From Pseudobdellovibrio sp. HCB154 (GTDB taxonomy: Bacteria > Bdellovibrionota > Bdellovibrionia > Bdellovibrionales > Bdellovibrionaceae), in contig NZ_CP176530.1 in assembly GCF_046267985.1 (NCBI RefSeq), positions 478,881-502,880 on the forward strand: DNA of 24,000 nt. Reading direction: 5' to 3'. The position numbers and the translations under genes are program-made. This document shows positions 14,804-22,922 of this stretch, piece by piece (the first letter of the stretch is position 1; the number at the start of each line of letters is the position of its first letter). Under the pieces are notes generated by a model that was not told where the DNA came from, ran no database searches, and saw only the letters and a program-made list of their open reading frames with translations.

Positions 14804-16036
14804 CTACTTTACTTTTTGCCTTTCGCCAAACAAAACCGTGCCGATTCGAATCCATGTCGCACCTTCTTTCAAGGCGACTTCGTAATCGTGGCTGGTTCCC
14901 ATCGAGAGCTCTTTGACTTGTAAGCGATCGGCCAAAGTTTTTAATTTTTTAAAATGAACTTGATTGTCTAAAGCCTGATTTTGCAGGGGAGGCATGGTCA
15001 TAAGCCCCACAATTTTTATATGAGCCAATTGAGTCAATTTATCCCAAGCGGCGAGAACGCTGGATTCGTCGAAACCCGCCTTGGTAGCTTCGTTCGCAAG
15101 ATTTACTTGAATAAAAACTTTTTGCACATGCCCGATTTCAGACGCTTTTTTTGAAACTAATTCGGCCAGTTCCAAAGAATCAATGGCGTGCAAATAAGCA
15201 AAGTTGTTTTTTAAATACTTTACTTTGTTTTTTTGAATCGGGCCGATCAGATGCCATTCTAAATTTAAATCTTTTAAGGCCTCGATTTTTTCTAAAGCCT
15301 CTTGAATATAGTTTTCACCAAAAGCCTTTTGGCCTTGTGAAACCAGTTCACGGATTTTTTCCAACGGTTGTAGTTTACTCACCGCTAGTAAATGTTGGTC
15401 AGCATTCAGTTTAGCTTTAATTTGTGAAAGGGCTGATTTTTCAAATGACCAATTCTTAGAGGTAAAGATTTTTTCTAATGCCGAAAGTGGAAGTCCAACG
15501 ACATTGTTGTAATCACCAACAAACTTTTCCACAAATTTTCCACCAAGACCTTGAATGGCGTAAGAGCCGGCTTTATCCATCGGTTCACCGGTTTTGATGT
15601 AATCCCAGATGTCTTCATCACGCAGGTTTTTGAAAAAAACTTGTGATGTCTCGATATGAGACGTGACTTCAGGTCCAGATTGACCAGCCCCTTGGTCCAG
15701 CAGGATGATCGCGGTTTTTACTTCGTGCATTTTGCCTGAAAGTTTCTTCAAAGTATCAAATGCATCCTGTTCGTTTTCAGGTTTGCCGATCGCTGAATTT
15801 TCTAAACAAACCATGGTGTCCGAAGCCAAAATAATATTGCTCGGATTTTTATCAGGACATAGGTCTAGGCAGGCCAGGGCTTTTCGTTTCGCAATGTCGA
15901 TTATCTGCTCGTCTAAGCTTAGGTTTTCATTCGGAATTTCCGATATGAAGACTGGGAATGAGACAAAATAATAACCGGCTTTTTTCAGAATTTCTGCGCG
16001 CCGCGGAGATTGCGAAGCTAGGACAATTTTTTTCAT
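14804..16036 (-). CDS. maf-yggS: Fusion protein: Maf-like nucleoside-triphosphate pyrophosphatase (N-terminal ~200 aa) + YggS/YlmE-family PLP-binding protein (C-terminal ~210 aa)
   Basis: Single uninterrupted 410-aa frame. Maf half: ASQSPRRAEIL, LASDTMV, DKAGSYAIQG, GDYNNVVGLP. YggS half: LLAVSKLQP (PLP Lys), FGENYIQE, WHLIGPIQKNK, LSMGTSHDYEVALKEGATWIRIGTVLFG. The stop lies 9 nt before the proC start. Confidence 0.9.
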   Translation of the reverse strand: MKKIVLASQSPRRAEILKKAGYYFVSFPVFISEIPNENLSLDEQIIDIAKRKALACLDLCPDKNPSNIILASDTMVCLENSAIGKPENEQDAFDTLKKLSGKMHEVKTAIILLDQGAGQSGPEVTSHIETSQVFFKNLRDEDIWDYIKTGEPMDKAGSYAIQGLGGKFVEKFVGDYNNVVGLPLSALEKIFTSKNWSFEKSALSQIKAKLNADQHLLAVSKLQPLEKIRELVSQGQKAFGENYIQEALEKIEALKDLNLEWHLIGPIQKNKVKYLKNNFAYLHAIDSLELAELVSKKASEIGHVQKVFIQVNLANEATKAGFDESSVLAAWDKLTQLAHIKIVGLMTMPPLQNQALDNQVHFKKLKTLADRLQVKELSMGTSHDYEVALKEGATWIRIGTVLFGERQKVK

Positions 16037-16067: not shown

Positions 16068-16976
16068 ATGGGTAGTGCTGAACTCATGTTATTTACTGGT
16101 CTCATCCTAGCGGGTGTGGCGGTTTATCTTTTCATGACTTCCATTTTGGCGGGGAAGCCCGGCGAAGCGCAATTGCAATGGGCCAGCGGTACTGAACCGA
16201 TTAAATCTAAAAATGGAATCATCAATCTTTGCCGTCCGATGGTGCATCAGTTTACTCTGCAGCACGCAGCAAAATTTAAATCTGAGGCTTATCGTAAAAA
16301 AATCCGTCACTTGATCAAAACTGGCGGCATGACATCTGAGATGAACGAAGATGAATTTATCGGTTACCAAATTTTCTTAGGTATCGCTTTTCCGATTTTT
16401 TTAATCATCATGAACTTTTCGTTAGACTTAGGATTTTCTCCGATGATCTTGGCGATGTTAGGCGTTGTGGGTTGGTTCATGCCACAGATGCACTGTAAGG
16501 CGCAGAAGAACGTAAGAACATTAAGCGTTCAGCAAGACATGCCATTTTTTATCGACCTACTTGCGCTTTCAGTTGAAGCGGGTCTTGATTTCTTCGGCGC
16601 GATTCAAAAAATCGTAGATAAAGTGGCTGACGAAAATTCAGTTTTAGCTGAAGAATTTAAAACAGTTTTAAAAGATATCAAAATTGGTTCATCAAAAACA
16701 GATGCGTTAAAAGAAATGGCCGCTCGCTTAGACATGCCAGAGATCACATCTTTCGTAGCCGTGTTAATTGATGCCGAAGCAACAGGCGCTTCAATTTCGC
16801 AAGTGTTAAAAGACCAATCGGTGCAAATGCGTTTAGAGCGCTTTGTTCGTGCGGAAAAAGCCGGAGCGCGTGCTTCGCAATTAATTTTACTTCCATTAAT
16901 GGGATTTATTTTACCAGCCGTATTCATCATGGTTTTCGGACCAGTGATTTTAGGCTTTGTGTACGGAAAGAATTAA
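16068..16976 (+). CDS. Type II secretion system F-domain protein (TadB/TadC-type Flp-pilus platform protein), orphan
   Basis: 302 aa, AAGAGGA SD. N-terminal TM, central double TM and C-terminal TM. T2SS-F domain motifs MPFFIDLLALSVEAGLDFFGAIQKI and ISQVLKDQSVQMRLERFVRAEKAGARASQLILLPLMGFILPAVF. I cannot tell TadB from TadC by eye. Confidence 0.85.
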   Translation: MGSAELMLFTGLILAGVAVYLFMTSILAGKPGEAQLQWASGTEPIKSKNGIINLCRPMVHQFTLQHAAKFKSEAYRKKIRHLIKTGGMTSEMNEDEFIGYQIFLGIAFPIFLIIMNFSLDLGFSPMILAMLGVVGWFMPQMHCKAQKNVRTLSVQQDMPFFIDLLALSVEAGLDFFGAIQKIVDKVADENSVLAEEFKTVLKDIKIGSSKTDALKEMAARLDMPEITSFVAVLIDAEATGASISQVLKDQSVQMRLERFVRAEKAGARASQLILLPLMGFILPAVFIMVFGPVILGFVYGKN

Positions 16977-16979
16977 AAG

Positions 16980-17336
16980 ATGGCAAAACTTTACAAGATT
17001 CAACATGGGGATAAAGCCGAGCTTCTGATTGAAAATCTGGAGTTGGCGGAATCATTTTTTGCCCGTGGTAAAGGGTTGTTAGGCCGAAAATCTTTAAGCC
17101 CGAATGCGGCGTTATGGATTAAGCCTTGTAACAACATTCACACCTTTTTTATGAATTTTGCGATCGATTGCATTTTTGTGAATAAAAAAATGGAAATTGA
17201 AAAAATAGTATCCGTTGTAAAACCCTATAAGATCATTGGGCCTTTTTGGAAAGCATCATCAGTCGTAGAAACAGCAGCTGGCAATGCAGAAAAGTGGAAC
17301 CTTCAGGTAGGAGATCAGTTATATGTGGTCAGTTAG
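16980..17336 (+). CDS. DUF192 (COG1430) family protein
   Basis: 118 aa. FARGKGLLGRKSLSPNAALWIKPCNNIHTFFMNFAIDCIFVNK fits the DUF192 pattern (G-L-M/L-G-R...hhF.....hH..FM.F.hD.hFh). Starts 3 nt after the upstream stop. No signal peptide seen. Confidence 0.8.
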   Translation: MAKLYKIQHGDKAELLIENLELAESFFARGKGLLGRKSLSPNAALWIKPCNNIHTFFMNFAIDCIFVNKKMEIEKIVSVVKPYKIIGPFWKASSVVETAAGNAEKWNLQVGDQLYVVS

Positions 17337-18990
17337 AGTATTATCCGGCCCACAAACCGGACAGATCTTTGATTTAAAGATGGGAAAAAACCTGTTAGGT
17401 CGGGGAATGAGCTGTGATTTTAAAATCACTTCAGGCGGTATTTCGAAAGAGCACTGCGAGATTCACGTATATAAAGATAAAGTGATCGTGGTTGATTTAA
17501 AATCAAGTAACGGAACATTCGTTAATGGCGTAAAAATTCAGAATTCAATTATTAAGTTAGGCGATAAAGTCAGTGTGTTCGACGTAATTATGGATGTAAT
17601 TCCTTCACCGGATATTCGTCCAAAACCATCAGCACCGGCTCCACGCCCGTTAGTGCCGCGCCCACGTCCGCCGGCACAACCAAGACAAATGCCTCCGCAA
17701 ATGTACCAGCAACCCCCAGCATTTCCGACGCAAGGTGGAGCGGCGATGCAAATGCAATATCAGCAGCAAATGCCACCGATGCAAGGTGTGCCGCCACAAA
17801 ATAATTTTGGTGCAGCCGTTGAGCCGCAAAAAACATTGGGTGAGCGCATTGATGACTACATGGAAAATGTAGTGATGCCGGTATTTTATAAAATGTCGGT
17901 GGTGTTTCCATTTAAACAAGTGTTAATGGGCATGATGATTCTCTTTGTGGTGTTTGTCACAATGGCGTCGATTTTTCCTCTGACAACTATTTTAAAAGAA
18001 TCAAATTTTAATGAAGCTTCAAAACGTGCTAAATCTGTGGCGCGTGCCATGGCTCGTATCAATGAGCAGGCACTTCTGTCTGGACAGCTAAATAATCTAA
18101 ATGTCAGTGAAGCTTTAAAAGAAGATGGTATTAAAGAAGCAATCATTATCCAACAAGCTGACGGGGCGATCGTTGCGCCGACAGAAAAAGTGGGTCGTGA
18201 TATGTCTAAGGGCTTTGTGATTCAGGCGCGTAAAGAACCACGTGCCATGGCTGCGCAAGTTGATGATAACACAATTGGCGCAAGTCATCCGATTGCAGCG
18301 TACGATCCATTATCTGGTGAAACAGCCGTTAAATACGTAGCTATCGTATTCTATGATGTCAGTTCATTAAATGTAGATGATGGCCGCGTGGTGAGTTTAT
18401 TCATGCAGACATTAGTTATTTCAGCTCTATTTGGTATTGTTTTATATCTATTATTTGCACGTCTTATCGAATATCCACTGCGTGCTTTGAATAAACAGAT
18501 TGATACGGCCTTACGTGAAAAAACAGATCGCACTGAAGTGGCGTTTGATTATCCAGAGTTACAAAAATCTGTAGCGAATGTGAATTTACTTTTAAACCGT
18601 TTATGGAATGGTTTAAGCGATTCTGAAAACATGAAACCTACGCAAAATCGCGATGTGGAATTTTCACAAATGGTGAATATGATCACGCAACCTGCGGCGG
18701 TGATTAATGTGAGTGGCTCGGTGGTTTCATGCAATCACCAATTTGCAACATTAGTGCAAACATCGCCAGAAGCGTTAGTTTCGCAAAACTACAACACGAT
18801 TGTAGACCCGGCGATGGTGCAAAACATTGAAAGTTTAATTACGCGTGCAAAAGAATCTGTTTATGAAACGCATAGAGATAAAATTCCGTTCTCACAATTT
18901 GAGTGCGAAATTAATTTACAAGCGTTTTTAGACAGTGCCGGTGCACCAGAGTATTTCTTTGTAAGTTTATCTAAGGTGAATCAGGAGTAA
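17323..18990 (+). CDS. FHA-domain transmembrane sensor-like protein (FHA / Pro-Gln-Met linker / TM / periplasmic domain / TM / HAMP-like / PAS-like), no output domain
   Basis: 555 aa.
- FHA at aa ~20-90 with the complete triad (LLGRG; ISKEHCEI; DLKSSNGTFVNG).
- Pro/Gln/Met-rich linker at aa ~95-165.
- TM ~199-221, a ~135-aa extracytoplasmic alpha/beta segment, then TM ~356-381.
- HAMP-like region: EYPLRALNKQIDTAL...ELQKSVANVNLLLNRL.
- PAS-like C-terminus: ITQPAAVINVSGSVVSCNHQFATLVQTSPEALVSQNY.
ATG 17323 overlaps the upstream gene by 14 nt, with a GGAGA SD ~8 nt upstream. Confidence 0.85.
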   Translation: MWSVRVLSGPQTGQIFDLKMGKNLLGRGMSCDFKITSGGISKEHCEIHVYKDKVIVVDLKSSNGTFVNGVKIQNSIIKLGDKVSVFDVIMDVIPSPDIRPKPSAPAPRPLVPRPRPPAQPRQMPPQMYQQPPAFPTQGGAAMQMQYQQQMPPMQGVPPQNNFGAAVEPQKTLGERIDDYMENVVMPVFYKMSVVFPFKQVLMGMMILFVVFVTMASIFPLTTILKESNFNEASKRAKSVARAMARINEQALLSGQLNNLNVSEALKEDGIKEAIIIQQADGAIVAPTEKVGRDMSKGFVIQARKEPRAMAAQVDDNTIGASHPIAAYDPLSGETAVKYVAIVFYDVSSLNVDDGRVVSLFMQTLVISALFGIVLYLLFARLIEYPLRALNKQIDTALREKTDRTEVAFDYPELQKSVANVNLLLNRLWNGLSDSENMKPTQNRDVEFSQMVNMITQPAAVINVSGSVVSCNHQFATLVQTSPEALVSQNYNTIVDPAMVQNIESLITRAKESVYETHRDKIPFSQFECEINLQAFLDSAGAPEYFFVSLSKVNQE

Positions 18991-18999
18991 GGCTAAGTA

Positions 19000-20259
19000 A
19001 TGTCAACGGCTGAAAAGCTACAACCCGCAGTTCAGATTAAATTGAAAGTGCTGAAAGGACCGCACGAAGGGCAGTCTTTTCATCTTTCAAAGAGCTCATT
19101 TACTGTGGGTCGTGGCCCAGAGAATGAGGTCGTTTTAATTAATGACCCGCAGATCAGCCGTCAGCATGCGCGTTTACAAGTGGTTGGCCAAGATATCGAG
19201 ATCATCAACTTATCTAAGAAAAATAAAGTGATGGTGGGATCAGAAGAAATCCAAAAATGGAAACTGATCAACGATTCAACTTTCATGTTGGGTGATACCG
19301 AAATTCAAATCGCCTTTGAAATTGAAAAATTAACACCGATGACGCCAGGTCCGCAATTAGTGCGCACGGATTTACCGGCTGTGCCCGTGGGGTTAGATCT
19401 GAATCCTCCGCCAGCTCCAGCGGCAACACCGCAAGCGAAAAAAACGCCAGCGATGACTCCGCTGCAACCGCAAGCGCCACGCAAGCGACCGATGCCGCCT
19501 CCGGCAAATCGCCAGCAAGTTCCTGCAAATCGTCAGGGGCAAGTGCAAGCACGCGGTCCGATGCAACCAGGCAGACCAGGCCCGCAAGGGCAGATGATGC
19601 CGCGACCAAATCAGCAAATGGGTCCGCAGTTTATTCCAGAAATGGGAATGGGAGCACCACGCCCAGCTACGAATTCTCAAGCAAATAGTGGTGGTGGATT
19701 ACTGGCTAATCCGAAAGCGCGTTTTTATTTAATTGTTGGAGCGATAGTCTTAGGTCTAGTTTATTGGTTAAATATGGAAGAGCCGAAGAAGCCTCAGTCG
19801 AATGAAATTAAATCGACTCTGAAATACGAAGATGAATATCTTCTTAAGCAAAACTCGGTGGCTGAAAAAGAACTGGACCAAAAGCGTAAGGCAAAACTTG
19901 AACAAAAGATGTCGCCGACAAATTTACGTGTTGAAGAGAACTTTCAAAAAGGCATGCGCGATTATCAGCTAGGTAATTACACGCGTGCCCTAGACTTTTT
20001 TCAGGTGGTGTTAAACTTAGATGCCAGCCATGTGATGGCTCGCCGTCATTTATACTTAGCTAAAATCCGCTTCGATGAGATCGTAAAAGCGAAATTAGCA
20101 CTTGGAGAAAGTTATTATCAGAAGCATAATTTTAAAATGTGCAAGGCGATGTACCAGCAAGTTTTGATTATGCTTCAGGGAAAAAACAACGATCAAAGTT
20201 ATCAAACAGCCCAAAGCATGTCAGAAAAATGTGGTCTGGCCGCTGAGGGAATTCGTTAG
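19000..20259 (+). CDS. FHA-domain bitopic membrane protein with extracytoplasmic TPR-like domain
   Basis: 419 aa.
- FHA at aa ~13-107 (FTVGRG; ISRQHARL; the N-G position reads N-K).
- Pro/Gln/Arg-rich linker at aa ~110-238 with several T-P dipeptides.
- One TM (FYLIVGAIVLGLVYWL).
- TPR-like repeats (FQKGMRDYQLGNYTRALDFFQVVLNLDASH; LGESYYQKHNFKMCKAMYQQVL). Confidence 0.85.
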   Translation: MSTAEKLQPAVQIKLKVLKGPHEGQSFHLSKSSFTVGRGPENEVVLINDPQISRQHARLQVVGQDIEIINLSKKNKVMVGSEEIQKWKLINDSTFMLGDTEIQIAFEIEKLTPMTPGPQLVRTDLPAVPVGLDLNPPPAPAATPQAKKTPAMTPLQPQAPRKRPMPPPANRQQVPANRQGQVQARGPMQPGRPGPQGQMMPRPNQQMGPQFIPEMGMGAPRPATNSQANSGGGLLANPKARFYLIVGAIVLGLVYWLNMEEPKKPQSNEIKSTLKYEDEYLLKQNSVAEKELDQKRKAKLEQKMSPTNLRVEENFQKGMRDYQLGNYTRALDFFQVVLNLDASHVMARRHLYLAKIRFDEIVKAKLALGESYYQKHNFKMCKAMYQQVLIMLQGKNNDQSYQTAQSMSEKCGLAAEGIR

Positions 20260-22341
20260 ATGTCGAGATTAAAAGTATTACTAAGGGGAGCACAGATCAG
20301 TGACTTAAACCTTAGCCCTGACCGTGAATATGTCGGTGGGCGTAAGGAAAGTTGCGATATCCGTTTGCAACCTGAAAAAGGCATCTCGCGCGAACATTTC
20401 AAATTAAAATTTGAAGAAGGCCGTTGGGTTTTAACCTCGTTATCACGTTTCGGCGAAATTTTTTCTGTGGGCCAAAGAGTTGAATCAACGCCTCTTGAAC
20501 ATGGCCAGGTTTTTCAAATTCCACCGTATGAATTTATTTTAAGTGATGTTCCTGATTCGGCCAGCGATTCGGTGAACGCCAGCGAAATGCCTGAGGCCGG
20601 TGAGAATGAACGCACGGTTATCGGTGTTGCTCAACAAGTGCCGTACATCAAAATGATGTCGTCTGACGGGCAAGTGCGCGAAATGCTTCGTCTGGAAGTG
20701 GGCGATGTGTGGGCCGCGGGCCGCGATCCTTCGTGCCAAATTATTATTCCTGATCAACGTGTTTCGCGTCGTCAGTTTGAAGTTAGAAAAATTAACGGCA
20801 TTTACACGATTATCGACTTAACAAGTGTGAACGGAACTTTCTTAAACGGTTCACCAATTTCAAGCACTGATCCACAGCCGTTAAAATCAGGTGATGCGAT
20901 CACGGTTCTTGATAATACAATGTATTTCGAACTTCATGACCCGAACTTTCAATACCGTATGGAACGTATCGAAGTTCCTCCAATGCAAATGGGTGGAGCG
21001 GGCGTTGATGACGTGGTTGAAGAAGTTCCGCTTGAAGAAGTGCCTTACGAAGAAGAATATGATCCGAACCAGGATATGAATTATCCGCAGGAAATTGATC
21101 AAGGTTATTATCAAGATCAATTAAATCCGGATGGTTCACCGTTTACCGGTATGCCGCCAGGCCAAATGCAGGGTGACTACTACACTATGCAAGGGGCCGA
21201 GGGTGTCGCACCTGAACAACAAGGTCCACCACCAAGCCCGATCAAACAGGCTTGGACTCGTTTTAAAAATAACAAGCCGGTATTTTATTCGGTTGTCGCT
21301 TTATTTTTAGTGGGTATGTATTTCTTAAGCGAAATGCTGAATGAACCTACTCCACAAAAAGCAACGCAACAGCAAGCATTTAATCCGGACGATCCCTTAT
21401 CACGTTTAAAACCTGAAGAGCGTGAAAATATCAGTCTCTGGTATAACAATGCCGAAAAAGCTTTACGTCAGCAGGCCTTCACGATTGCTAAAGAAAATTT
21501 AGATAATATTCATAAACTTTTACCTTTAGGTTATAAAGATTCAAAACTTTACGAAGCTGAAGCCTTAAACGGTGAGCAAACTCTTTTAACACAACAAGAA
21601 ACTGAACGTCGTGATAAAGAGCAAGCTGAATTACAGGCTTTAATCAAATCCACTTTGGAAAAGTGTGAAAAATCAATCGTGCCAGAAACAACACCTGAAG
21701 GTTTACAAGAGTGTTTGGCGCCAGTGACAATCAACGACCCGACAAATGCTGACGCCGAAAGAATGATTAGCAAAGTTCGCCAAACGATTGCCGACCGTCA
21801 AGCTAAAGAAGATGCTGAACGTGTGGCTAAACAGCAGCGCGAAGATATGAAAGCTATTTTTGAACGTGCTGAAGAAGTTCATAAAACCGGTTTTCCGAAA
21901 AAAGCGATTAAAGCTTATAACGAAGTTTTAGCCAGCGATTTACCAGATCCAGATGGTTACAAAGATATTTCAAAACAACGTATTAAGTTTATCGAGAAAA
22001 AATTAGCAGAACGTAATCAAAACAACATCAGCAATGCCGAAACTTTCCTTAAAGACGGAAAACTTAAAGAAGGCATTATGGCCTTACGTGCAGCGCTGTT
22101 ATTTGATCCAGATAACCAAACGATCAAAGATAAAATTGAGCGTTATTCAAATGATTTAAGAAACCAGGTTAAGGTGATGTACCAAGAATCCATCATCGAT
22201 GAAAACTTTGGTTACGTAGACGGGTCTGATAATAGACCGGGCGCTAAAGACAAATGGAAAAAAATTATTGAAATCGACCTTGAAGATGGTGATTACTACC
22301 GTAAGGCCTTCATTAAACTTAGACGCTACGGAGTTTTCTAG
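20260..22341 (+). CDS. Tandem-FHA bitopic membrane protein with extracytoplasmic coiled-coil/TPR-like region
   Basis: 693 aa.
- FHA-1 at aa ~3-95, divergent (YVGGRKESCDIRL; ISREHFKL; no N-G).
- FHA-2 at aa ~128-226 (WAAGRDPSCQIII; VSRRQFEV; DLTSVNGTFLNG).
- Acidic/Pro/Gln/Tyr linker at aa ~239-329.
- One TM (VFYSVVALFLVGMYFL).
- ~330-aa charged helical region with TPR-like repeats (KAIKAYNEVLASD; GKLKEGIMALRAALLFDPDN).
The ATG directly abuts the upstream TAG. Confidence 0.85.
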   Translation: MSRLKVLLRGAQISDLNLSPDREYVGGRKESCDIRLQPEKGISREHFKLKFEEGRWVLTSLSRFGEIFSVGQRVESTPLEHGQVFQIPPYEFILSDVPDSASDSVNASEMPEAGENERTVIGVAQQVPYIKMMSSDGQVREMLRLEVGDVWAAGRDPSCQIIIPDQRVSRRQFEVRKINGIYTIIDLTSVNGTFLNGSPISSTDPQPLKSGDAITVLDNTMYFELHDPNFQYRMERIEVPPMQMGGAGVDDVVEEVPLEEVPYEEEYDPNQDMNYPQEIDQGYYQDQLNPDGSPFTGMPPGQMQGDYYTMQGAEGVAPEQQGPPPSPIKQAWTRFKNNKPVFYSVVALFLVGMYFLSEMLNEPTPQKATQQQAFNPDDPLSRLKPEERENISLWYNNAEKALRQQAFTIAKENLDNIHKLLPLGYKDSKLYEAEALNGEQTLLTQQETERRDKEQAELQALIKSTLEKCEKSIVPETTPEGLQECLAPVTINDPTNADAERMISKVRQTIADRQAKEDAERVAKQQREDMKAIFERAEEVHKTGFPKKAIKAYNEVLASDLPDPDGYKDISKQRIKFIEKKLAERNQNNISNAETFLKDGKLKEGIMALRAALLFDPDNQTIKDKIERYSNDLRNQVKVMYQESIIDENFGYVDGSDNRPGAKDKWKKIIEIDLEDGDYYRKAFIKLRRYGVF

Positions 22342-22343
22342 TC

Positions 22344-22922
22344 ATGAAATCAAAAGTCAGTTCACACAATGGCCAGCAGAAATTTCCACAAACACATGTG
22401 CATAGTCTGTTAAATGATAATTTATTAGTGTGCATTCGTTTATGGAGCGGCCCTGAAGTAGAACAAAAAGCAGTTGATGAAATTCTACGTTACCTTTCAG
22501 CGGCTGATGCGGATCTGGAAGTTACAACGCCGTTTGATTATATCGAAAGTTTATCGTCGCTTGCAAATAAAGTGCGCGTCGCTTTATTACTGGCCAATGA
22601 AGCTTTATACATTGATAACAAAGAAAAATATTCGCAAGGTTTTGAAATTGCAATTTGTTATAAACACAATAAAGAAATCAGCTTAGGTTCGGTGGGGCGC
22701 TTTGCTTTTACAGCAGAAAAGAAAGACAAAAAGTTTTTAATGTTTGAATCAGGTGGCTTTTTAGATGATTTAGTGCTGCTTCCGACAGATCTTTTAGGCA
22801 TTGAACGTGAAGTTGATATTAAGTGCACGTCTGTTTCAACGCGCGATTTATCTTCAATTCAGATTAGTTCTAAGTTTGACCAAAATACATATTGGTCAAC
22901 AACTGTTAGTCAGTTTGACTAG
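22344..22922 (+). CDS. Hypothetical cytoplasmic protein, last gene of the FHA operon (possible degenerate PP2C-like fold)
   Basis: 192 aa. The ATG lies 2 nt after the upstream stop. No signal peptide or TM. LLVCIRLWSGPEVEQKAVDEILRYL and EIAICYKHNKEISLGSVGRFAFT are spaced like the DGMGG-helix and GDSR strands of PP2C phosphatases, but the metal-binding Asp residues are absent. This is a by-eye impression only. Confidence 0.55.
   Translation: MKSKVSSHNGQQKFPQTHVHSLLNDNLLVCIRLWSGPEVEQKAVDEILRYLSAADADLEVTTPFDYIESLSSLANKVRVALLLANEALYIDNKEKYSQGFEIAICYKHNKEISLGSVGRFAFTAEKKDKKFLMFESGGFLDDLVLLPTDLLGIEREVDIKCTSVSTRDLSSIQISSKFDQNTYWSTTVSQFD

Follow-up and report, generated by a model that had tools for sequence, protein, structure and literature searches.

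A kinase-less FHA, PDC, HAMP-like and PAS membrane protein encoded beside tadC: a candidate sensor or adaptor for the prey-invasion machine of Bdellovibrio-like bacteria

How Bdellovibrio recognises its prey, and then switches on its Tad machine and cyclic di-GMP signalling, is an open question. Here we take it up from a single gene of a relative, Pseudobdellovibrio sp. HCB154, which lies in a stretch of 24,000 nucleotides (nt) of NCBI RefSeq assembly GCF_046267985.1 (contig NZ_CP176530.1, positions 478,881 to 502,880 of the forward strand), hereafter the window, to which all positions refer unless otherwise said. This gene (17323-18990) sits within the tadC operon and encodes a membrane protein of 555 amino acids (aa), which we call the sensor protein. 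A preliminary description, made from the letters alone, had likened it to the input half of a histidine kinase, with an FHA domain at its N-terminus and nothing at its C-terminus to act as an output. What, then, would such a protein do inside the operon of a pilus-type machine? We read it, with a probability of roughly one half, as an inner-membrane, probably dimeric, kinase-less sensor or adaptor of the Tad (Kil-like) machine that serves in prey invasion; the dimer is proposed because PDC, HAMP and PAS proteins are generally dimeric.

A sensor-kinase input module that ends without an output

The reading frame starts 14 nt inside the upstream DUF192 gene, and the downstream gene begins at 19000, 9 nt after its end. 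Its parts, all of them on the forward strand, are the following (AF2, AlphaFold2; pLDDT, predicted local distance difference test; TM, transmembrane helix; AS1 and AS2, the two helices of a HAMP domain).

17323..18990, +: whole gene of the FHA / PDC / HAMP-like / PAS membrane protein, 555 aa; ortholog, by synteny, of B. bacteriovorus Bd0472
17323..17604, +: cytoplasmic FHA domain, aa 1-94 (Pfam FHA, Yop-YscD_cpl and PDB profile matches)
17605..17832, +: disordered Pro/Gln/Met-rich linker, aa 95-170 (low pLDDT, insertions and deletions, conservation 0.24)
17833..17916, +: conserved juxtamembrane helix upstream of TM1, aa 171-198 (AF2 helix 172-194; P186, Y189 and F197 at least 90% conserved)
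17917..17985, +: TM1, aa 199-221 (Kyte-Doolittle windows above 1.6 centred on 200-216; conservation 0.60)
17986..18384, +: predicted periplasmic domain of PDC/sCache fold, aa 222-354, 133 aa (AF2, Foldseek, near-constant length)
18385..18456, +: TM2, aa 355-378 (hydropathy; conserved R355, S358, L359, Q362 and G371)
18457..18612, +: divergent HAMP-like segment, aa 379-430 (AS1 from P385-L, connector 402-410, AS2 411-429 with N421)
18613..18648, +: short variable linker from the HAMP-like segment to PAS, aa 431-442 (pLDDT below 50 over 427-441; conservation 0.29)
18649..18975, +: cytoplasmic C-terminal PAS domain, aa 443-551 (Pfam PAS, Foldseek)

Every element of the domain order that had been listed at the outset is present, each at its place. 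By Kyte-Doolittle hydropathy the protein crosses the membrane exactly twice, at about aa 199-221 and 355-378, and Pfam recognises two domains only, FHA and PAS; in this topology the predicted DcuS-like PDC domain is periplasmic, and FHA, the HAMP-like segment and PAS are cytoplasmic. The M-W-S start is invariant in a close alignment of 34 homologs. In a distant alignment of 45 sequences, which reaches down to 27% identity, the FHA domain, both TM helices, the HAMP-like segment and the PDC domain have mean conservations of 0.57-0.67. The full-length AF2 model has a pLDDT of 64 overall and is confident at aa 222-354 and 443-551; for FHA it stays at about 50 despite the strong profile match, and because of this low confidence we draw no structural conclusion on where the FHA domain is placed.

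The likeness to a sensor kinase is carried by both fold and profile. Searched with Foldseek, the full AF2 model has as its best PDB match the integrative model of WalK (9a5d_A, E 2.4e-13 over 392 columns), followed by tandem-PAS proteins. Among NCBIfam profiles WalK is likewise the best non-FHA match, a weak one, in which aa 199-517 align with profile positions 9-330, the input half of WalK.

Between the two TM helices the preliminary description had seen about 135 extracytoplasmic residues of PDC/Cache-like appearance, and modelling supports that assignment. We collected related loci from GTDB species representatives and kept 80, all labelled Bdellovibrionota except one each labelled Bacillota, 'bacterium' and Oligoflexia. 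The periplasmic segment is 131-134 aa long, and 133 aa in nearly all, across the 71 related loci with a complete gene, with almost no insertions or deletions. Modelled alone by AF2, from 42 sequences cut from the related loci, it is predicted with a pLDDT of 89.7 and a predicted TM-score of 0.85 as a long helix followed by a five-stranded sheet. The sole Foldseek match of this model below 1e-3 is the PDC sensor domain of E. coli DcuS (3by8, E 1.3e-4, TM-score 0.57, same length), weaker matches being Cache, LuxQ, TlpA and PAS domains. A PDB profile search with the segment came back empty, and Pfam, its sCache/PDC models included, has no match within aa 222-354. A conserved stripe (E231, R235, A236, A240, A244 and N247) runs along one face of the first periplasmic helix, as would fit a dimer or partner interface.

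Directly after TM2, where a HAMP-like amphipathic pair had been proposed, AF2 predicts a helix at 353-401 that is unbroken from TM2 and a second at 411-429, with a short connector between them. P385 is invariant, and the spacing of L386/L389/I393/L397 and of L413/V417/V420/L424/L427 is that of heptads. The Pfam HAMP model (PF00672) has no match to the protein at E-values up to 1, and a genome-wide scan with it gave 24 HAMP matches, this segment not among them. Yet when the profile of the segment is aligned by hhalign with 13 HAMP domains of the same genome, the two run in register from end to end (probability 47%, E 1.9e-4, 53 columns), with Pro-Leu in AS1 and Asn in AS2 opposite their equivalents; HAMP domains also conserve a Gly in the connector and Asp-Glu where AS2 begins, and these are absent here. 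Because the Pfam model is silent and the alignment is nevertheless in register, we call the segment HAMP-like and divergent: the helix pair stands, the family name only in this qualified form. A candidate conserved phosphosite in the connector (K-T-D-R-T-E-V) was dropped, T401 and T404 being conserved among close relatives only. Elsewhere in the genome, an open frame of 1896 aa carries at least 11 consecutive Pfam HAMP matches (contig C1:2225905-2228817, outside the window) and is thereby a poly-HAMP protein.

At the C-terminus, Pfam PAS (PF00989) reaches 26.2 bits at aa 447-549 (cut-off 22.6), and the Foldseek matches of this part are dominated by PAS structures (NifL, PYP, LOV, FixL), in agreement with the PAS-like ending described earlier.

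The FHA domain at the other end is the most conserved segment of the whole protein (0.67). Pfam FHA (PF00498) scores 56.6 bits over aa 25-84 (cut-off 20.7), and the PDB profile matches of this part are FHA domains only. The residues that bind phosphothreonine (pThr), G26-R27, S41-x-x-H44 and N63-G64, are invariant in the 34 homologs and at least 90% conserved in the distant set; the FHA triad recorded in the preliminary description is thus complete and conserved, and pThr binding itself is predicted from it. The Yop-YscD_cpl model (PF16697), which overlaps the generic FHA model, also matches this part, at 48 bits against a cut-off of 33.2.

From TM1 the FHA domain is separated by 76 residues rich in Pro and Gln, which are predicted to be disordered (AF2 pLDDT below 50), vary in length with many insertions and deletions among homologs, and are less conserved than any other part (0.24, where the domains have 0.57-0.67). 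This linker bears on the boldest idea of the preliminary description, namely that the FHA domain is itself the output and that a ligand-dependent change would alter its choice of pThr partner or its scaffolding of co-encoded proteins. The absence of an enzymatic output agrees with this idea; conformational coupling across a floppy, unconserved tether does not. Because the linker is disordered, variable in length and unconserved, the FHA domain has more the look of a docking module on a tether, serving as input, localiser or recruiter, than of an allosterically driven output. In HAMP receptors the signal exits via TM2 and the HAMP domain toward the C-terminal side, and the regulated surface is here more likely HAMP-PAS than FHA. 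The scaffolding half of the idea stays plausible: the operon is invariant, and other members of it are documented or predicted interactors (PMC12034629). As a separate observation, the conserved cytoplasmic helix before TM1 (17833-17916) could pack on the HAMP-like bundle, in which case the N-terminal half could sense the state of that bundle.

Is the missing output really missing? The protein ends 4 aa past the PAS domain; Pfam finds nothing beyond FHA and PAS, and neither Pfam nor NCBIfam gives a HisKA or HATPase_c signal. A full HMMER search with aa 190-555 against 1.84 billion cluster representatives returned at least 150 clusters, at 50% identity, below 1e-30. The best 150 are represented by full-length proteins, of about 500-590 aa, and by shorter fragments; the sensor part always reaches the C-terminus, and no C-terminal extension or kinase fusion occurs among them. 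Within the phylum, a sensor match occurs in 281 of 301 sampled Bdellovibrionota genomes, and every frame that holds one is open over about 505-650 aa. In distant families, four members checked singly are FHA proteins of 506-574 aa with a PAS domain detectable in two; their genes each lie directly after a T2SSF gene, and after a DUF192 gene in the three loci scanned for it. Because the frames are open across the phylum and the position of the C-terminus is kept, we conclude from these comparisons that the kinase-less layout is ancestral and stable, not a truncation. The claim that the protein carries no kinase or other output domain is upheld, with none detected and the same ending throughout the family, and the domain loss that kinase-fused orthologs would have suggested finds no support in the best 150 clusters or in the layout kept in the 281 genomes.

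Three observations on the distribution of the gene stand apart. One Bdellovibrionota family (f20) has a match to the sensor part in none of 13 genomes, whose completeness is 85-98%; many genomes of family f19 carry two matches; and in one genome of the same genus a TAA stands inside the copy of the gene.

The tadC operon and its Bdellovibrio counterpart

Where does such a protein belong? The sensor gene is, by synteny, the ortholog of Bd0472 (EP01_RS14010), third gene of the Bd0470-Bd0475 tadC operon described in B. bacteriovorus (PMC12034629; PMC6561027). It has the length, the domain order (FHA, linker, TM, 133 aa, TM, HAMP-like, PAS) and the operon position of the Bd0472 group, and the gene order around Bd0472 is the same (DivIVA, TadC, DUF192-type gene, three FHA genes, small hypothetical gene), as is the FHA annotation. 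Genomes of the sister genus encode a 41%-identical protein of about 550-575 aa, at about 0.35-0.53 Mb in most of the complete chromosomes listed. Compared with Bd0472 we see nothing different in kind: this is a new ortholog in a relative of lower G+C content, near Bdellovibrio sp. qaytius and Pseudobdellovibrio.

In published transposon sequencing (Tn-seq), disruption of Bd0472 is reported to abolish prey killing, an effect that may be polar, with predation fitness values of 0.002 and 0.0007 (Duncan 2019, PMC6561027, Data Set S5). In a killing assay of the single mutant, prey survival was 95%, with intermediate scores for attachment and rounding (PMC6561027, Data Set S5).

The other members of the operon in the window are these.

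16068..16976, +: operon gene 1, single-domain T2SSF platform protein, counterpart of TadC / KilH (Bd0470) (Pfam T2SSF)
16980..17336, +: operon gene 2, DUF192 protein, counterpart of Bd0471 (Pfam DUF192, 67 bits); overlaps the sensor gene by 14 nt
19000..20259, +: operon gene 4, FHA / TM / TPR protein, counterpart of Bd0473 (Pfam, synteny)
20260..22341, +: operon gene 5, protein with two FHA domains, TM and TPR-like part, counterpart of Bd0474 (Pfam, synteny)
22344..22922, +: operon gene 6, 192-aa protein, counterpart of Bd0475, possibly degenerate PP2C-like (sub-threshold PP2C matches)

In 79 related loci, with sensor proteins down to 27% identity, the order TadC, DUF192, sensor, FHA-TPR, double FHA-TPR and small protein is kept wherever the contig reaches, and in all related loci with a contig extending that far the sensor gene is preceded by the DUF192 gene. 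In the window a divIVA gene precedes the operon, just as DivIVA precedes Bd0470 in the gene list of Duncan 2019. Bd0474 has been described with the domain layout of our operon gene 5 (PMC12034629). The last gene is the least readable of the six. Its product has no Pfam or NCBIfam match, and a profile of its family (25 sequences) finds PP2C Ser/Thr phosphatases only in the PDB, below significance (E 0.6-1.1). E101 is the sole invariant acidic residue, D57 and E59 being at least 90% conserved, and the product may be a degenerate PP2C-like pseudo-phosphatase; a Phyre note on Bd0475 also suggests a PP2C-like protein (Duncan 2019, PMC6561027).

The tad genes of this genome are scattered. Between the tadC of the window and a TadB-like single-domain T2SSF gene (C1:141170-143094, outside the window) lie 354 kb. 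The TadB-like gene adjoins an open frame of 757 aa that matches T2SSE ATPases and, to judge by its length, may be a TadZA-type fusion. This dispersal matches the layout described for B. bacteriovorus HD100. A recent preprint likewise reports tadC apart from the main tad locus and beside FHA/TPR/PAS genes, places TadC at the invasive pole, and names FHA, TPR and PAS in a figure legend among the domains of tad-neighbouring genes (bioRxiv 10.64898/2026.07.08.737194). In Myxococcus, KilH is orthologous to Bd0470, and the FHA proteins MXAN_4648 and MXAN_4649 are encoded immediately beside kilH (Seef 2021, PMC8460266).

Also in the window, on the reverse strand at 14804-16036, a single frame of 410 aa fuses Maf and YggS. 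A 55%-identical relative has them as two overlapping genes of 205 and 225 aa, and because they are split there the fusion appears clade-specific.

How the protein may work, and what else it could be

If the sensor protein docks to phosphothreonine, the genome offers few enzymes to make it. Eight FHA domains occur in seven proteins, three of them encoded in the tadC operon; the others are a DgcB-like FHA-GGDEF protein (307 aa), an FHA sigma-54 activator (430 aa) and two large proteins (676 and 736 aa). Against these stand one reading frame above the Pfam Pkinase cut-off (635 aa, with a C-terminal PEGA domain) and one PP2C, so that the pThr network would be a small one. The coordinates of this toolkit outside the window are C1:2665742-2667649, 3058413-3058970, 2762261-2763181 and 2708944-2710233. 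A second Pkinase match, 7 kb upstream of the window, proved to be a UbiB/ABC1 protein and was set aside.

We envision the following sequence of events. The PDC domain would bind or feel an envelope cue that arises on prey contact, which might be a small molecule, the periplasmic part of a partner, or the state of the pilus or its platform. The change would travel along TM2 and the HAMP-like bundle until it reached the PAS domain. Contacts made by the PAS surface would then be altered, either those with the platform or ATPase of the Tad machine or those with the FHA-TPR proteins of the operon. Meanwhile the flexibly tethered FHA domain would dock the complex to a Thr-phosphorylated partner, which might be a Ser/Thr kinase that has phosphorylated itself or else a phosphorylated protein of the Tad machine or the operon. 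Tad activity would in this way be the point where envelope sensing meets Ser/Thr phosphorylation.

Several points weigh against this sensor or adaptor role. The link to the Bd0472 phenotype is an indirect one, made through synteny, description and the single copy found per genome of the Bdellovibrio-like family; in addition, complementation was carried out for Bd0470 and Bd0474 only (Duncan 2019, PMC6561027), and because of this the Tn-seq phenotype of Bd0472 may be polar on Bd0473-Bd0475. The HAMP assignment rests on the 47% hhalign probability and on position, with the Pfam model silent. PAS is the least conserved of the domains (0.47) and has no cofactor motif, and because its joint with the HAMP-like segment is variable (0.29) and modelled with low confidence, mechanical coupling to it may be weak. 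There is no kinase among the operon genes, the last of which looks catalytically degenerate.

The alternative that survives best, which we consider unlikely though well worth keeping in sight, is that nothing is sensed at all. The protein would be a purely structural inner-membrane component of the Tad or Kil-like machine, in a role like those of SctD/PrgH/YscD, TagH/Fha or GltG, with an FHA domain that docks constitutively or independently of phosphate and with PDC, HAMP-like and PAS parts that serve dimerisation and spacing only. Much in the locus would suit such a connector: Yop-YscD_cpl is above its cut-off and NCBIfam gives weak matches to SctD, GltG and TagH, the two neighbouring FHA-TM-TPR proteins look connector-like, and Bd0474 interacts with Bd0075 in the periplasm by two-hybrid assay (PMC12034629). 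The TM helices are unusually conserved, as fixed intramembrane contacts would be, and the six genes are so tightly coupled in translation that a stoichiometric complex is suggested. What speaks for sensing instead is that all pThr-binding residues are kept across the phylum, which is not expected of phospho-independent binding, and that TM / PDC / TM / HAMP / PAS is the canonical chassis of transmembrane signalling, with WalK as the best structural match; the two TM helices and the absence of ring-building motifs are also unlike SctD.

Could the protein instead be half of an enzyme? As the sensing half of a split receptor kinase, it would dock through its FHA domain a separate, autophosphorylated Ser/Thr kinase of the PknG-like Bd3148 type, and its PDC-HAMP-PAS part would control the activity of the docked kinase or its access to substrates such as DgcB or Tad proteins. 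The conserved FHA pocket, the lack of a kinase in the operon and the very few Hanks kinases set against seven FHA proteins would all agree with this. There is also a precedent in Bdellovibrio, where FHA/pThr gating of DgcB controls prey invasion (PMC6733907). The pThr is attributed there to an unidentified, presumed prey-sensing kinase for which Bd3148 is the proposed candidate (Meek 2019, PMC6733907), and Bd3148 is itself needed for predation (Tn-seq fitness 0.003; PMC6561027). Nevertheless nothing ties the sensor protein to any kinase: the sole frame above the Pkinase cut-off has a C-terminal PEGA domain of its own, a Bd3148-type kinase was not located in this genome, and a linker so long and floppy makes it less likely that a docked enzyme would be under tight allosteric control. 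We regard a split kinase as improbable.

A still longer shot is the extended form of the same idea. The sensor protein would here be the receptor, long sought, through which Bdellovibrio registers an encounter with prey. It would work as a receptor Ser/Thr kinase in two pieces, in which the PDC domain reads a prey-envelope cue and the FHA domain recruits a soluble PknG-like kinase, so that DgcB and Tad components become phosphorylated and invasion is licensed.

Finally, a histidine kinase truncated or frameshifted near 18990, its dimerisation (DHp) and catalytic (CA) domains lost by mutation or sequencing error, is a case that the preliminary description had itself raised and that is effectively refuted: in its favour is only that aa 199-517 resemble the N-terminal half of WalK, and against it stand a C-terminus at the same place in all listed homologs and across the 281 genomes, a downstream gene 9 nt away with a conserved FHA domain of its own, and the lack of kinase-fused relatives and of HisKA/HATPase_c signals reported above.

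Comparison with known systems

The gene family, its requirement in predation and its FHA annotation are already known; in the literature that we searched, Bd0472 is described only as an FHA protein. We found in that literature neither a reading of Bd0472 as a PDC/HAMP sensor nor any description of output-less FHA-HAMP-PAS sensors. What we have not found in print is thus the combination proposed here, a WalK-like input module with a DcuS-like periplasmic domain, a HAMP-like transmitter and no enzymatic output, present across the phylum beside tadC. Its interest lies in a near-universal protein of the Bdellovibrionota, reported to be needed for predation and encoded within the tadC operon, that offers a concrete and mutable candidate for a link between envelope sensing, Ser/Thr phosphorylation and the activity of a pilus machine. 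It would also be an example of a histidine-kinase input module used without an enzymatic output, with a periplasmic domain modelled as one of ligand-binding type, and it gives the Tad machine of prey invasion a candidate sensor or adaptor that can be tested.

Among known systems, the WalK/VicK kinases have the same input order of TM, extracytoplasmic PAS/PDC, TM, HAMP and cytoplasmic PAS. Unlike them, the sensor protein has neither DHp nor catalytic ATPase domain, carries an added N-terminal FHA domain on a long linker, has no paired response regulator, and is embedded in a pilus-platform operon. The periplasmic domain, as modelled, resembles the PDC domains of DcuS, CitA and PhoQ in fold and size (133 aa, long N-terminal helix, five-stranded sheet), whereas in sequence it has 11% identity to that of DcuS, with no detectable similarity.

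With the ring proteins SctD/PrgH/YscD the sensor protein shares the cytoplasmic FHA-like domain (PF16697). Those proteins have a single TM helix and periplasmic ring-building motifs, in place of which the sensor protein has two TM helices and a predicted PDC fold; with TIGR02500 it scores 28 bits, where 86 are required. Bdellovibrio DgcB (FHA-GGDEF) and Myxococcus EspA (FHA-PAS-histidine kinase), from predatory deltaproteobacteria-like lineages, likewise join an N-terminal FHA domain to signalling domains, and NCBIfam EspA matches the FHA domain of the sensor protein in part. Both have an enzymatic output (cyclase and kinase, respectively) and are not double-pass periplasmic sensors, whereas the sensor protein has no enzymatic output.

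A parallel in setting comes from Myxococcus, where the Kil FHA proteins (MXAN_4648, MXAN_4649, KilD and KilF) also lie beside the platform gene of a predator's contact-dependent envelope machine. None of these proteins, nor Fha1/PpkA of the Pseudomonas aeruginosa type VI secretion system, has been described with a PDC-HAMP-PAS module, and Fha1 is soluble. Likened by gene position and description, the sensor protein, the Kil FHA proteins and Fha1/PpkA would nevertheless share one idea, that Thr phosphorylation gates the assembly of an envelope machine on contact.

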